A DNA stretch of 36,670 bases from a virus (IMGVR_UViG_3300020045_001519:1-36670); one strand, 5' to 3'. Positions 3,456-12,112 are shown, counted from the first letter of the stretch. Notes: generated by a model from the sequence alone, not told the origin. Program-made: numbers and translations.

Positions 3456-3944
3456 ATGGAAATAGAAATTTGGAAAGATGTTCCTGAATATGAAGGTTTA
3501 TATCAGGTAAGTAATTTTGGAAACGTTAAGAGTTATAAATCAGGATTAGAAAAGATATTAAGTCCTTCTAAAGATTCTTGGGGTTATTTACAATTAGGTT
3601 TAATAAAAAATTTAACTAGAAAAACATTTAAGGTTCATAAATTAGTAGCTATGGCTTTTTTAAATCATAAACCATGTGGTTTAAAATTACAAGTTGATCA
3701 TATAAATAAAAATATATTAGATAATAATGTAAAAAATTTACAAATTTTAACAGCTAGAGAACATAAACATAAAGATTGTAAAAAAGGATCAAGTAAATAC
3801 ATTGGTGTTTCATTTGATAAATCAAGAAATAAATGGCATTCTCAAATTACTATAAATGGTAAAAATAATAATTTAGGTAGATTTAAAAATGAATATGATG
3901 CACATTTAGCATATCAAAATAAATTAAAAGAAATAGAAAAATGA
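3456..3944 (+). CDS. NUMOD4-HNH-AP2 homing endonuclease
   Basis: EIWKDVPEYEGLYQVSNFGNVKS (NUMOD4); VHKLVA...VDHINKNILDNNVKNL (HNH); SKYIGVSF...W...LGRF (AP2-like). Confidence 0.88.
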   Translation: MEIEIWKDVPEYEGLYQVSNFGNVKSYKSGLEKILSPSKDSWGYLQLGLIKNLTRKTFKVHKLVAMAFLNHKPCGLKLQVDHINKNILDNNVKNLQILTAREHKHKDCKKGSSKYIGVSFDKSRNKWHSQITINGKNNNLGRFKNEYDAHLAYQNKLKEIEK

Positions 3945-7331: not shown

Positions 7332-7835
7332 ATGGAATGGAAAGCAGTTTTATTTAATGGTTTAGAAACTAATGTTGAAGTTACTAAATGTGGTCGAGTT
7401 AGAAAAGTAAAAGTTAATTGGATTAATTGCAAAACAAACATAGGAGAGTTTGATTTTAATAAATTAAAATTACATAAAAATGGATATAAACAAATTAATG
7501 CAAAAATTAAAAATTATAAACATAAAAGTTTTTTTGTTCACCAATTAGTAGCAGCTGCATTTTTAGATTATAAATTTCAAGGTCATAAAATGGTTGTTGA
7601 TCATATAGACTCAAATAAATTAAATAATCATATTGATAATTTAAGAGTTATTACACATAGAGAAAATACATCTAAAGAAAGAAGTATTAAAAAAGGACTA
7701 CCTGTTGGCGTTAGTTTTGATAGAAATAAATATAAATCAAGAATTATTATAAATAATAAACTAATTCATTTGGGTTTATTTAAAACAATAGAAGAGGCAT
7801 CTTATGCATATCAAGAAAAATTAAAAACAATTTAA
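7332..7835 (+). CDS. HNH homing endonuclease (NUMOD4-like, HNH, AP2-like)
   Basis: VHQLVAAAFL...VVDHIDSNKLNNHIDNLRVITHREN; GVSF...IHLGLFKTIEEASYAY. Confidence 0.85.
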   Translation: MEWKAVLFNGLETNVEVTKCGRVRKVKVNWINCKTNIGEFDFNKLKLHKNGYKQINAKIKNYKHKSFFVHQLVAAAFLDYKFQGHKMVVDHIDSNKLNNHIDNLRVITHRENTSKERSIKKGLPVGVSFDRNKYKSRIIINNKLIHLGLFKTIEEASYAYQEKLKTI

Positions 7836-8099: not shown

Positions 8100-9059
8100 A
8101 TGAAAAAATTATTATTTATCGCTTTATTAGCAACAATTTCAGTAACAGCTCAAAAACAACACGCCTCAGGAGATGGCGCAACAGCATCAGCTTATTATTC
8201 AACCGCAGTTGGTGACGATGCAAAAGCAACCCAAGACCATACAACCGCAATTGGTAGAGCAGCACAAGCTACCGCATACAAAGCTACTGCTTTAGGAGAT
8301 AACACAAGAGCAATCGCACAAGGTTCAACCGCAATTGGTCGTGATGCACTTACACAAGGTCAATGGTCAACAGCAGTCGGTGAAAGTGCTAAAACTGGAG
8401 CAAATGCAACTGGAGCTATTCAACTTGGAGGAGGTGAGAATTTTGAAGCCTATACCGTTCAATTAGGAAACGGAAGCGGTATGCGTTTAAAAGGAGTTGC
8501 AAATGGTGTAAACGATAAAGACGCAGTTAATGTAAGTCAATTAAACGCTACTAAATTACAAACCGCTCAGGATATTGCAACGGCTAAAACACAAGCTATT
8601 CAATCAGCTAAAACGTACACCGATAGCAAAATTAGAGAGGTAAACGATAAAATAGACCTCAACGCTGAAACTGCTAAACTATACACCGATAAAGAAACAG
8701 AAAGAGCCACAAACGAGGAATTGAAAATAAACAAGCGTATTGATGCTTTAGAGCTTAAAATAGACAATAGATTTAATGCGGTGATGTCATACGTTGGAAA
8801 CGAATTTCAAGCCGTTAATAATCGTATTGAAGGATTAGGAGCGTCAATAGTAGCTTTATCCGCAGCGGCTACTTCAAGCGTGTATAATGCTAACAAACCA
8901 ACTAACTTAAATATTGCAACAGGGGTTTATGGTAAGGCTTCAGCTATTGCAGTAGGTATGTCGCACTTCTTTAATAGTTCAACTAAGGTTTCTGTTAACT
9001 GGTCGCAAGGTAGCAATACTAAAAACGCAGTTGGCTTAGGATTTGGAGTTGCTTTTTAG
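8100..9059 (+). CDS. YadA-like trimeric autotransporter adhesin
   Basis: Signal peptide; about 14-residue STAVG/TTAIG/ATALG head repeats; neck GVANGVNDKDAVNVSQL; coiled-coil stalk; beta-strand anchor ending in Phe. Confidence 0.88.
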   Translation: MKKLLFIALLATISVTAQKQHASGDGATASAYYSTAVGDDAKATQDHTTAIGRAAQATAYKATALGDNTRAIAQGSTAIGRDALTQGQWSTAVGESAKTGANATGAIQLGGGENFEAYTVQLGNGSGMRLKGVANGVNDKDAVNVSQLNATKLQTAQDIATAKTQAIQSAKTYTDSKIREVNDKIDLNAETAKLYTDKETERATNEELKINKRIDALELKIDNRFNAVMSYVGNEFQAVNNRIEGLGASIVALSAAATSSVYNANKPTNLNIATGVYGKASAIAVGMSHFFNSSTKVSVNWSQGSNTKNAVGLGFGVAF

Positions 9060-9815: not shown

Positions 9816-10253
9816 ATGGCTTATAAACAAAACGAAATAGACGAAATATTTAATTACGTTTGTAAAGAGATTGAAACAGGTAAGGCTTTGAGAAATGTAT
9901 TAAAGGAGGAACAAATGCCAAGTACCTCAACTTTTTTTCAATGGTTAGAATTATACCCAGACAAAGCGAAACAATACGCGCGCGCGACAGAAGTTCGCTC
10001 AGAGGTAATCTTTGACGATATACTTTCAATTGCAGACCAAAACGCTGGAGATACTTACATAAACGAGTTTGGAGTTGAGGTTATTAATAGCGATGTAATA
10101 CAAAGATCACGTTTAAGAATAGACGCACGAAAGTGGGTACTTTCAAAATTAAACCCTAAAAAGTTTGGAGATAAAGTACAAACTGAACATTCTGGAGAGG
10201 TAACTACAACTGTTATAAACTTAGGAAACGGAATTAAACCAAATGAAAAATAA
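9816..10253 (+). CDS. terS: Terminase small subunit (Sf6 gp1-like)
   Basis: N-terminal HTH (LRNVLKEEQMPSTSTFFQWL), RLRIDARKWVLSKLNPKKFGDK; position before terL. Confidence 0.88.
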   Translation: MAYKQNEIDEIFNYVCKEIETGKALRNVLKEEQMPSTSTFFQWLELYPDKAKQYARATEVRSEVIFDDILSIADQNAGDTYINEFGVEVINSDVIQRSRLRIDARKWVLSKLNPKKFGDKVQTEHSGEVTTTVINLGNGIKPNEK

Positions 10254-10255
10254 AT

Positions 10256-10296
10256 GTAGATAGTGTTTATACCTATCTACTTTTTTAGTATATTTG
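10256..10296 (+). terminator. Terminator-like hairpin plus promoter for the HNH gene
   Basis: GTAGATAG/CTATCTAC plus T6; TATATTTG 10289-10296. Confidence 0.6.
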
Positions 10297-10299
10297 CTT

Positions 10300-10773
10300 A
10301 TGGAAAAGAAAATTTGCAAATACTATTCAGTAGATACATTGGGAAATGTAATTACAGATAATTGGAGAAACACTGGTAAAACAGCTATTTTAAAACACGC
10401 TATAGACAATAAAGGTTATTGTAGAGTTGGTTTGTCAATAGATGGTAAATTAGTCACTAAAAAGGTTCACAGGCTTATTGCAATAGCATTTATACCTAAC
10501 CCAGAAAACAAACCGCAAGTTAATCACATTAACGGAATTAAAACCGATAATAGAGTTGAGAATTTAGAATGGGTTACTCCAAAAGAAAATACTCGTCACG
10601 CAATTAATAATAAAATGTGCGGTTATATAAAATTAGACGAGCAAAAGGTTTTAGAAATAAGAAATTTATATAAAGATGGAAATTATACTCATAAACAACT
10701 TGCTTTAAAGTATGGAGTTATAAGACAAACTATTGGTGATATAATCAATAAAAAAAGGTGGAAACACATATAA
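10300..10773 (+). CDS. Free-standing HNH homing endonuclease with C-terminal HTH, between terS and terL
   Basis: VHRLIAIAFIPNPENKPQVNHINGIKTDNRVENLEWVTPKENTRH; HKQLALKYGVIRQTIGDI; ATG 10300 preferred over TTG 10294. Confidence 0.9.
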   Translation: MEKKICKYYSVDTLGNVITDNWRNTGKTAILKHAIDNKGYCRVGLSIDGKLVTKKVHRLIAIAFIPNPENKPQVNHINGIKTDNRVENLEWVTPKENTRHAINNKMCGYIKLDEQKVLEIRNLYKDGNYTHKQLALKYGVIRQTIGDIINKKRWKHI

Positions 10774-12112
10774 ATGAAATTAATAACTAAACAAGAAAAT
10801 GCAGTCTACTACCTAAAAGATAGCCATACAAAAGAGCTTATCTATGGTGGGGCTGCTCGATAGCCCCCTTGCTTAATTGTGAGGGGGCGAAATTGCAGGA
10901 GGTGGCAAATCGGCACTCGGGGTACTTTGGTTAATTGAACAATGCCAATCTTATCCTGGTACTCGTTGGCTTATGGGTAGGTCAAAGCTAAAATCACTTA
11001 AAGAAACAACTTTAAATACTTTCTTTGAGCAAACTACTGCTTTGGGTATAGCGAGCCAATTTAACTACAACGCACAAGCTGGTGTAATCTATTGGAATAA
11101 TGGGAGCGAAATACTATTAAAGGATTTATATGCGTACCCAGCAGACCCAAACTTTGATAGCTTAGGGTCGTTAGAAATAACAGGAGCGTTTATTGATGAG
11201 TGTAACCAAATTACTTATAAGGCATGGCAAATAGTTAAGTCCCGTATTCGATACAAAATAAAAGAATTAGGAATAATGCCTAAGATGTTAGGAACGTGCA
11301 ACCCTGCTAAAAATTGGGTTTATGCTAACTTTTACCTAAAACAAAAAAACGGTACAATTGAAAGCGACAAACGTTTTATTCAAGCCCTACCAAAAGACAA
11401 CCCGCATTTACCAGCTTCTTATTTAGAGTCGCTTTTAACCTTAGACGAAAATAGCAAACAACGTTTGTACTATGGTAATTGGGAATACGACAACGATCCA
11501 GCTAAATTAATCGATTTTGAAAAGATACAAAACGTTTTTACCAATACCTTTGTAGAAGGTGGCGAAATGTATATTAGTGCGGATATTGCTCGTTTTGGCT
11601 CGGATAAAATGGTTATTTGCGTTTGGAGTGGGTTTAGGGTTGTAGAACTTTATACAATGAATAAATCCAGCATTACAGAAATAGCACAAATTATTCGTGA
11701 CTTTGCTTTTAAATATAAAATACCGATGGCAAATGTTATAGCAGATGAGGATGGAGTAGGAGGTGGTGTTGTCGATATTCTAGGGTGCAAAGGGTTTGTT
11801 AATAATAGTAAGCCTATGTTAGTTGATAATCAAATCGTACAATACCAAAACTTAAAGTCTCAATGTTATTTTAAATTAGCTGAGGTTATCCAAGCCGATC
11901 AAATGTATATCAATTGCAACGATGGAGCTGTAATTGACGAAATAACAAAAGAGCTGGAGCAAGTAAAAAGAGATAAAATTGACAGCGATGGTAAGCTCAC
12001 AATCGTATCAAAAGAAACGGTAAAACAATTTATCGGTAGGTCACCCGATTATAGCGATGCATTAATGATGAGGATGTACTTTTGCTTTAAAATAAGTTTT
12101 TTCACATTTTAA
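10774..12112 (+). CDS. terL: Terminase large subunit, split by a 40-nt insert; joining 10774-10857 to 10898-12112 gives 432 aa
   Basis: 5' ORF MKLITKQENAVYYLKDSHTKELIYGGAA(R*) and 3' frame GGGKSALGVLWL...MGRSK together give Walker A GGAAGGGKS; Walker B AFIDE; TCNP; nuclease SADIARFGSD and RSPDYSDAL. Confidence 0.9.
10858..10897 (+). other. 40-nt non-coding gap in the terL Walker A (candidate translational bypass element)
   Basis: CGA TAG, then 10-bp hairpin GCCCCCTTGC-TTAATT-GTGAGGGGGC, then GAAATT GCA; stops in both relevant frames. Confidence 0.7.

Follow-up and report, generated by a model that had tools for sequence, protein, structure and literature searches.

The gene for the large terminase subunit (terL) of an uncultured virus is cut in two by a 40-nt gap, which ribosomes probably cross by programmed bypassing, driven by two refolding hairpins and spread by HNH homing. 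Sequence comparison establishes that the gene is split and that such splits recur, that both protein pieces and both hairpins are under selection, that a codon is repeated at the two ends of the gap, and that the gap is linked to an HNH endonuclease gene. The stretch of DNA analysed (IMGVR_UViG_3300020045_001519, a linear contig of 36,670 nt, 96% complete; henceforth the window) has a siphovirus-like gene content according to profile matches, and its TerL shares 80.8% identity with the TerL of Flavobacterium phage 11b; this likeness, and it alone, supports a Bacteroidota host. Profile searches of the window (again, a record 96% complete) gave a single match to terminase large subunits, and the 40-nt gap divides the Walker A motif (ATP-binding loop) of this only detected terL. 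The motif aligns with the P-loop of Sf6 gp2, the overall match being weak. Neither a tRNA gene nor, on either strand, a terminator-like site was found in the window, which also carries, at 8100-9059, a phage gene with YadA-like trimeric autotransporter domains (head, stalk and anchor).

The locus lies on the plus strand and consists, in order, of the small terminase subunit gene (terS), an HNH_3 gene, a 28-codon piece of terL, the gap and 404 further terL codons. The terS gene (9816..10253; phrog_1482, E 2e-39; PF20901, E 1e-35) contains in its 3' end the left copy (10241..10248) of an 8-nt direct repeat, AAATGAAA, which is a leftover terL start; the right copy (10772..10779) contains the terL start codon. 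Between the copies lies a gene for a free-standing, I-HmuI-like HNH endonuclease of 157 aa (10300..10773; PF13392, E 2e-12; 1U3E, E 8e-12) with an alternative TTG start at 10294. The terL frame opened by the ATG at 10774 reads ...ELIYGGAAR and stops; its 28 codons up to YGGAA (10774..10857) encode the same peptide as in 70 intact relatives, and GGGKS picks up in the +1 frame at the start of the 3' piece (10898..12112; phrog_2, E 6e-35). Deleting 40 nt restores a 432-aa TerL with YGGAAGGGKS, and five equivalent deletion registers, from 10854-10893 to 10858-10897, yield the identical peptide. In the register used here the proposed take-off codon is GCT (Ala28; 10855..10857), and the gap (10858..10897) comprises CGA, TAG, a 10-bp hairpin including two G-U pairs, with a C-run in its 5' arm and a G-run in its 3' arm (10863..10888), an AU-rich spacer (10889..10894) and the proposed landing codon GCA (10895..10897). 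A first-pass annotation, made from the window sequence, had proposed ribosomal bypass of this gap, and all of its positions held when we rechecked them; the HNH gene and its flanking repeat were absent from it.

That annotation had left it to be confirmed that the 40 nt are no assembly slip. We compared DNA contigs from four runs (four studies), which are close relatives of the window phage rather than reads of the window itself: three of them (X1, X2 and X6) run through the gap free of indels and extend 31 nt or more to either side of it, and the fourth (X3) covers the gap and stops 11 nt past it. The 40 nt, bridged in contigs of close relatives, are thus no assembly slip.

To place the gap among related terminases, we kept the best 80 of 574 IMG/VR matches, of which 77 were readable (70 intact and 7 with an insert), and widened this set by pattern scans to 54 insert alleles distinct by flank (window included), carrying 49 distinct inserts. 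The patterns fixed YGG on the 5' side and two or three Gly plus Lys on the 3' side, and some also demanded CCCC; the landing codon was left free for take-off at four positions of the motif (G2, A1, A2 and R) and was fixed by the three-Gly patterns for the fifth (G3). The two-Gly scan gave two terminase inserts (L207 and L246), each landing on a Gly codon. Overall, 82 of 268 motif pairs passed the terminase profile, 14 loci were dropped by eye as chance pairs ahead of an intact motif, 10 were added by eye, and all 12 distant alleles tested for identity were terminases. A subset of 44 "core" inserts excludes L330, L331, L332, L205 and L207, which stay in the sets of 49 and 54. Because the alleles share ancestry and were gathered via motif patterns, nominal P values are overstated throughout. 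Insert length was 37-45 nt in 45 of the 49, covering all three frames, and 26-54 nt overall apart from one 5-nt case.

Several inserts depart from the common form. The 5-nt insert (GGT-TAG-GA; L331, minus strand, match 1501-1560, and L328) lies in the Walker A of a terminase, identified by PHROG, with a downstream ORF of 437 aa, and judging from its sequence is a possible minimal stop-hop. An AU-rich, in-frame 39-nt insert (L330:1501-1566) contains a stop, runs from GGA to GGA and lacks the C/G hairpin (-2.2 kcal/mol). The 26-nt insert of L207 (minus strand, 1501-1555) is the most T4-like, having a stop right after take-off, GGT at both ends, a short stem with a UUUG loop and a strong 5' stem as well. 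Inserts of 54 nt and 51 nt (L332 and L205) have long near-perfect hairpins, HNH genes upstream and no significant 5' stem. Four terminase-like genes (L324-L326 and L337) carry an in-frame, stop-free 42-nt stretch repeating YGG, and were excluded from all counts.

A pattern scan of GTDB gave 9 loci, of which one was a genuine insert, on a 4.8-kb MAG contig already in the collection; only 2 of 401 sampled genomes of one phylum had a close terL, with the motif intact in one and the pattern unmatched in the other. The cultured relatives 11b, phi10:1, Versailles, BS-TP3 and P12002L have terL annotated as continuous, no phage record matched the insert region by blastn, and we found no cultured phage with an insert. 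In a motif scan that ignored the hairpin, helicase and RecA-like genes dominated among the matches listed. A pattern for the hairpin only hit 25 viral loci, i.e., two known terL inserts, 17 unrelated repeat copies and six others in which no clear split gene was seen, so that this one pattern gave no sign of the element beyond terL; a covariance model found no second copy in the window. The 17 repeat copies (L369 and 16 similar loci) form a recurrent cluster of C-rich/G-rich repeats and hairpins in viral contigs, unrelated to terL.

Sequence evolution indicates that insert-bearing terL is alive, with both protein pieces under purifying selection. The ORF after GGGK is at least 400 aa long in all 41 insert alleles sequenced over 380 codons or more, and the remaining 13, on short contigs, have no early stop. 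Values of dN/dS ranged from 0.011 to 0.147 in the 22 computable of 25 insert-insert pairs and from 0.011 to 0.077 in the 7 pairs more than 90% identical; in the closer pairs the terL 5' piece, too, varies mainly at synonymous sites. A dead terL, which the first-pass annotation had named as fatal to its proposal, is thus not what these full-length ORFs and low dN/dS values describe.

Comparison of alleles also bore out the earlier argument that the gap has to be skipped exactly, because the motif never has an indel in intact alleles (70/70 read [YF]GGAAGGGKS), because inserts occur in all three frames (frame 0 in 16, +1 in 25 and +2 in 8 of 49), and because readthrough, one frameshift or restart cannot rebuild the loop. 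In the window, readthrough or one frameshift is blocked, as first noted, by downstream-frame stops at 10874 and 10880. Of the 33 out-of-frame inserts, 24 block a frameshift and 9 leave a single one open, and any of these routes would put extra residues into the P-loop. As for restart, 38 of the 49 inserts have no ATG, GTG or TTG in the open stretch before GGGK, the first ATG in the window's downstream piece (10973) lies 3' of the Walker A lysine, and in several inserts a stop immediately precedes the landing codon.

If the gap is skipped by a ribosome, its two ends should be readable by one tRNA. The codon before the gap and the codon at its end had the same base 1 in 48/49 inserts and the same base 2 in 46/49, and agreed at base 3 in just 12/49; that both copies keep bases 1-2 and vary base 3 is as expected if one tRNA reads both. 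The claim of matched take-off and landing codons (GCT/GCA in the window) therefore extends to the family in the sense that the two were synonymous in 44/49 inserts, at five motif positions (G2, A1, A2, R and G3) and for three amino acids (Gly, Ala and Arg). It is no strict match, however: five inserts have unmatched ends, namely GCT to GTA (3), AGG to AGC, and GGT to AGC (L332). GTA is the landing codon in the X1, X3 and X6 contigs (3 of 4 runs), i.e., in the closest relatives, with no change listed for X2. A change from C to T at landing base 2 would leave a G-U pair with the anticodon, and no Ala insert alters base 1 of the landing codon. The GG and AG repeats at Gly and Arg ends are identical rather than complementary, which again fits a single tRNA reading both. 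Among 39 Ala inserts the take-off codon was never GCA and the landing codon was GCA in 25, with GCA found in 20 of 59 intact alleles; this bias would suit a tRNA that pairs weakly when released and strongly when captured, although shared ancestry inflates it. Codon-aligned, matched ends point to re-pairing of a peptidyl-tRNA, given that a cut in DNA or RNA has no cause to hold codon register.

What follows the take-off codon is less uniform. The first-pass annotation had stressed the CGA and the stop after GCT and an echo of the T4 gene 60 take-off sequence (GATAGCC), none of which generalises: the 49 inserts start with 20 different triplets, among the 44 core inserts the stop is the codon next to take-off in 13, the second codon in 19 and a later one in 12, and GATAGCC appears to be a chance likeness. 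In the window, CGA makes up 33 of 8942 codons in 31 ORFs. Across the inserts neither a stop nor a rare codon is conserved after take-off, and nothing conserved accounts for slow A-site decoding, which weighs against bypassing.

The gap hairpin, by contrast with these codons, recurs as a signal. The 10-bp stem described earlier was confirmed and is much stabler than shuffled sequence (-20.3 kcal/mol, z -5.0, 0/200 shuffles equally stable). As the first-pass annotation had anticipated, alignment recovered both uninterrupted alleles (70) and insert alleles with hairpin covariation. In the 16 inserts of 40 nt, 95.6% of cells are paired, with two-sided changes at 6 of 10 pairs; across 44 inserts the corresponding values are 84.5% and 8 of 10. 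Paired cells and covariation score exceeded all 500 shuffles and the slid controls (the shuffles ignore relatedness). By this comparative evidence the gap hairpin is under selection and covaries. In the core set its span is 22-28 nt, the first stem C lies 7 nt past take-off in 36/44 and the last stem G lies 6-10 nt from the landing codon in 44/44; loops are variable, and linkers and gap ends have no invariant base among the inserts. An alternative hairpin over the take-off codon and stop does exist, as had been proposed, but is weak (-12.1 kcal/mol, z -1.7, 16/200 shuffles equally stable) and does not behave as a conserved signal, an allele's own flank beating intact flanks in just 17 of 33 cases. 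In E. coli, hairpins block the A site at 11-12 nt (PMC7282821, from the portion of the report available); the base of the gap stem lies 9 nt from the first P-site base, which counts against the gap hairpin blocking the A site.

The 3' arm of the gap hairpin contains an SD-like run (GAGGGGG, 10881..10887), 7 nt 5' of the GCA at 10895. The run thus stands where the proposal of a mini-SD had put it, but its role is doubtful because, according to the accessible part of one report, Bacteroidia ribosomes sequester their anti-SD, even during prfB frameshifting (PMC10798248). The duplex of the G-run and AU spacer with the anti-SD motif is predicted at -12.6 kcal/mol, 3 of 30 start codons in the window reach -4 kcal/mol with such a motif, and most start codons of the phage have no SD strength. 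The G-run may pair with the anti-SD, or the refolded gap hairpin alone may set the landing distance.

A second structure, absent from the first-pass annotation, is hidden in the coding sequence upstream of the gap. This predicted 56-nt stem-loop (10801..10856; -19.4 kcal/mol, z -2.95) has outer 11 bp (10801-10813 with 10846-10856) that end at base 2 of the take-off codon. Over the 69 coding nt up to take-off, mean folding energy was -21.5 kcal/mol in insert alleles versus -8.9 kcal/mol in intact ones, the peptide being nearly the same, and z was -2 or lower against synonymous recoding in 40/54 insert and 2/59 intact alleles. Past the landing codon, a stretch of equal length did not set 52 insert alleles apart from 59 intact ones (69 nt, P 0.8; window z 0.62). 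Nor is there an insert-specific nascent-peptide motif: the 28-aa consensus of 28 insert alleles barely differs from that of 59 intact ones, though a peptide effect common to both may exist.

The long form of the 5' stem, which the window has, has its outer helix 98.6% paired in 13 insert alleles (L316 was excluded from this alignment). Three of its pairs at third codon positions hold in 13, 11 and 13 of these 13, compared with 20, 20 and 15 of 56 intact alleles; two-sided changes occur at these same pairs, which are mostly unpaired in intact alleles, and intact alleles show no covariation on the long-stem structure. A shorter form in 19 alleles (17 distinct) has weaker support, and both groups were picked by predicted fold before pairs were counted. 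Other registers occur (L019, L234, L118, L207, L289 and L293), 14 of 54 insert alleles have no significant 5' stem (among them L205, L246, L288, L332, L265 and L309), and intact alleles, too, often have a paired base near take-off. From predicted folds and compensatory synonymous changes, we conclude that the 5' stem is selected in insert alleles. Two alleles (L046 and L061) have an intact terL with an insert-type 5' stem in the 69 nt before GGGK, and may be scars of precise insert loss.

The gap is further associated with the endonuclease gene. Of 51 insert alleles, 16 are immediately preceded by an HNH ORF (15 by Pfam and one by PHROG; 12 of 35 within the 11b-like group), as opposed to none of 59 intact alleles; the other 35 insert alleles have none directly upstream. 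When the window HNH was aligned with 10 other insert-linked HNHs of the 11b-like group, nine were 49-61% identical to it and one 30%; it is related to I-HmuI (PDB 1U3E) and keeps the His and Asn positions of the HNH_3 domain. Two more HNH genes in the window (3456-3944 and 7332-7835, one of them NUMOD4-HNH-AP2) are just 26-30% identical to it. In the X6 contig position 10240 is joined to 10772, with 8 letters fitting either side, so that the gap is kept and HNH is precisely absent between the copies of AAATGAAA. Insert status has changed by at least 13 gains or losses on a quick TerL tree, 9 of them forced by strong branches. One allele (L024) matches the window in 30/30 nt before the gap and is only 77% identical downstream, where it is sister to 11b; another (L006) is 96% identical downstream to an intact allele, whereas its last 30 nt before the gap are 90% identical to the window and 80% to that intact allele. 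Two alleles (L251 and L297) retain a leftover terL start before HNH. Since the 5' flank travels with the gap and leftover terL starts persist, the mobile unit is likely to comprise HNH, a replacement 5' end for terL, and the gap. On these comparisons the insert was likely spread by the adjacent endonuclease, and the gene at 10300..10773 is predicted to mobilise the cassette. At the terS-terL junction of two other contigs we observed GIY-YIG endonuclease genes (L047:2274-2909 and L055:2253-2909), each followed by an intact terL with a different N-terminus.

We propose the following course of events. The ribosome would translate 28 codons, with the 5' stem-loop refolding behind it; the last pairs of this stem need bases up to the take-off codon, and their zipping would strip the mRNA from peptidyl-tRNA-Ala at GCU; meanwhile the gap hairpin in front of the ribosome would slow decoding of the next codon. 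The ribosome would then slide, and the melted gap hairpin, refolding on exit, would give a second push that leaves the P site about 6 nt past the stem. The tRNA would re-pair at GCA (or at GUA via a G-U pair) and translation resume at GGA, giving the 432-aa TerL, which would contain a tryptic peptide spanning ELIYGGAAGGGK; a ribosome that decodes CGA instead would terminate at the UAG, yielding a 29-aa peptide. Hairpins formed at the ribosome exit have been proposed as forward drivers for T4, at least in the available portion of that work (10.1101/2024.12.09.627546). In mixed infections, the 5' ends of intact terL would be nicked by HNH and repaired by copying HNH together with the new 5' piece and the gap; the gap would then shield its own allele from HNH, which would often be lost afterwards.

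An unlikely alternative to such bypassing is a mini-intron, i.e., removal of the gap from the mRNA by a host or phage nuclease and a ligase, with the two hairpins joining the ends. A cut after base 2 of the repeated codon would restore Ala in GCA and GTA alleles alike, so that GTA alleles require no mismatch; the frame independence of the inserts, the G-U-rich stems (a mark of selection on RNA) and a 5' stem that in the window stops exactly after the GC of the take-off codon would all suit it. Its ends, however, would have to change with the codon (GC, GG or AG) and yet hold codon register at five motif positions, and no RNA ligase match was found in 35 window proteins scanned. The fold, judged by eye, is unlike a bulge-helix-bulge with cuts 40 nt apart. 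To our knowledge, known self-splicing introns are all far longer than 26-54 nt, and the linkers offer no invariant base; an Rfam search of the window gave no intron or ribozyme match at gathering score and just weak chance matches near the locus. Group I and group II introns were rejected, there being no conserved catalytic core in that search and no conserved terminal nucleotides in the insert linkers.

We consider it highly improbable that the gap is skipped in DNA or during transcription, by hairpin-promoted deletion or a polymerase jump between the 2-nt repeats, with TerL supplied in trans. Short repeats flanking a palindrome promote deletion, such repeats are present here, L046 and L061 could be precise losses, and run X1 additionally contains an insert-free terL allele. 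That X1 contig, however, is divergent and lacks HNH, and so belongs to another phage; the repeat is just 2 nt and codon-aligned, the stems retain many G-U pairs, typical of RNA, and a precise deletion would be heritable and should displace the insert. Equally little probability attaches to the pieces never being joined, be it as a split TerL, through downstream restart, or through readthrough or frameshifting that leaves extra residues: the G-run and AU-rich spacer do resemble a translation start region in their predicted anti-SD pairing, and the 9 inserts open to a single frameshift would allow it, but this would have to accommodate the lack of start codons before GGGK, a first ATG past the Walker A lysine, stops just before landing codons, and inserts in three frames at a motif with no indel in 70 intact alleles. 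That terL is dead and the phage defective, or that the gap is an assembly artefact, as might be suspected of an uncultured linear contig with no cultured insert-bearing phage, is largely refuted and has next to no probability, given independent contigs that bridge the gap, 41/41 full ORFs, low dN/dS in insert clades and compensatory changes in both hairpins.

With bypassing as the preferred reading, the nearest known systems are T4 gene 60 (a 50-nt bypass) and MobA, and by analogy the terL gap likely works like their cassette. As far as the accessible parts of the reports go, they have in common an essential phage gene with a non-coding insert at an invariant motif (10.1101/2022.08.31.505936), take-off and landing codons readable by one tRNA (here in 44/49), two stem-loops, the first of them 5', that are proposed to drive the ribosome forward (10.1101/2024.12.09.627546; here predicted structures), an SD-like run and AU-rich stretch before landing (10.1101/2022.08.31.505936; here in sequence, the role of the run being doubtful), and an adjacent HNH endonuclease, often lost while the insert persists (here a putative nuclease). 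The differences, within the same limits of those sources, are that the gene is terL rather than that of the topoisomerase large subunit; that sequence likeness to gene 60 is limited to the chance GATAGCC; that the take-off codon closes the 5' stem here and lies in the 5' arm of a tetraloop take-off stem in T4/MobA, whereas our gap hairpin begins 6 nt after take-off and the inserts have no tetraloop consensus; that T4-type cassettes have a stop or hungry codon right after take-off and the terL inserts no conserved one; that the terL inserts lack a nascent-peptide extension and a forward barrier; and that take-off occurs at five positions and three amino acids, in likely Bacteroidia hosts with a sequestered anti-SD. 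Because several defining features fail, the terL inserts are not members of the T4 gene 60/MobA cassette.

Natural programmed bypassing is documented, in the portions of the literature available, in very few cases, namely T4 gene 60 and its homologues, yeast mitochondrial byps and a candidate in Streptomyces phage Hau3. The accessible part of the Hau3 report (PMC10732093) describes 10-nt or 7-nt gaps in the terminase opened by a UUA hungry codon (3 of 100 genes) and proposed as a host-state sensor. Both cases present a bypass candidate in the large terminase with a junction intolerant of extra residues and a proposed 5' stem-loop; here, however, the gap is 40 nt and there is no TTA among the 20 first triplets, and neither a gap hairpin nor an endonuclease is described in that part of the report (PMC10732093). 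The Magnusiomyces mitochondrial byps, as far as the available text describes them, are mobile inserts of 27-55 nt in many genes with an undecodable codon after take-off (10.1101/2022.08.31.505936). Length is similar (47/49 inserts fit that range), whereas our inserts involve bacterial ribosomes, one gene (a single copy in the window) and an HNH link, and their first triplets are ordinary codons or stops.

I-HmuI (PDB 1U3E), which has in common with the window HNH the HNH_3 domain with its His and Asn positions, is encoded within an intron, whereas the HNH here stands as a gene of its own between terS and terL and accompanies a coding gap. In the literature searched, chiefly open-access papers and the main texts of preprints, we found no report of hairpin gaps in a terminase Walker A.

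We tentatively suggest, as a possibility that goes beyond bypassing of this one gap, that the terL inserts may constitute a self-contained class of bypass elements, in which two mRNA hairpins, one written in synonymous codons and one in the gap, ratchet the ribosome over about 40 nt and need neither a stop nor a nascent-peptide signal nor anti-SD pairing, the 5' stem re-evolves for each take-off position, and homing endonucleases carry the module between terminases. Events at the mRNA exit have been named the main unsolved problem of forward drive in T4 bypassing (10.1101/2024.12.09.627546, in its accessible part). With dozens of natural variants carrying two covarying hairpins, intact sister alleles as controls and the entire signal within the first 125 nt of the gene, the exit-pairing model becomes directly testable, and testable, too, in a ribosome with a hidden anti-SD. 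In practical terms, insert-bearing terL genes get annotated without their Walker A. For phage biology, the terL locus would be a second case, independent of the first, in which a free-standing homing endonuclease accompanies a coding gap.
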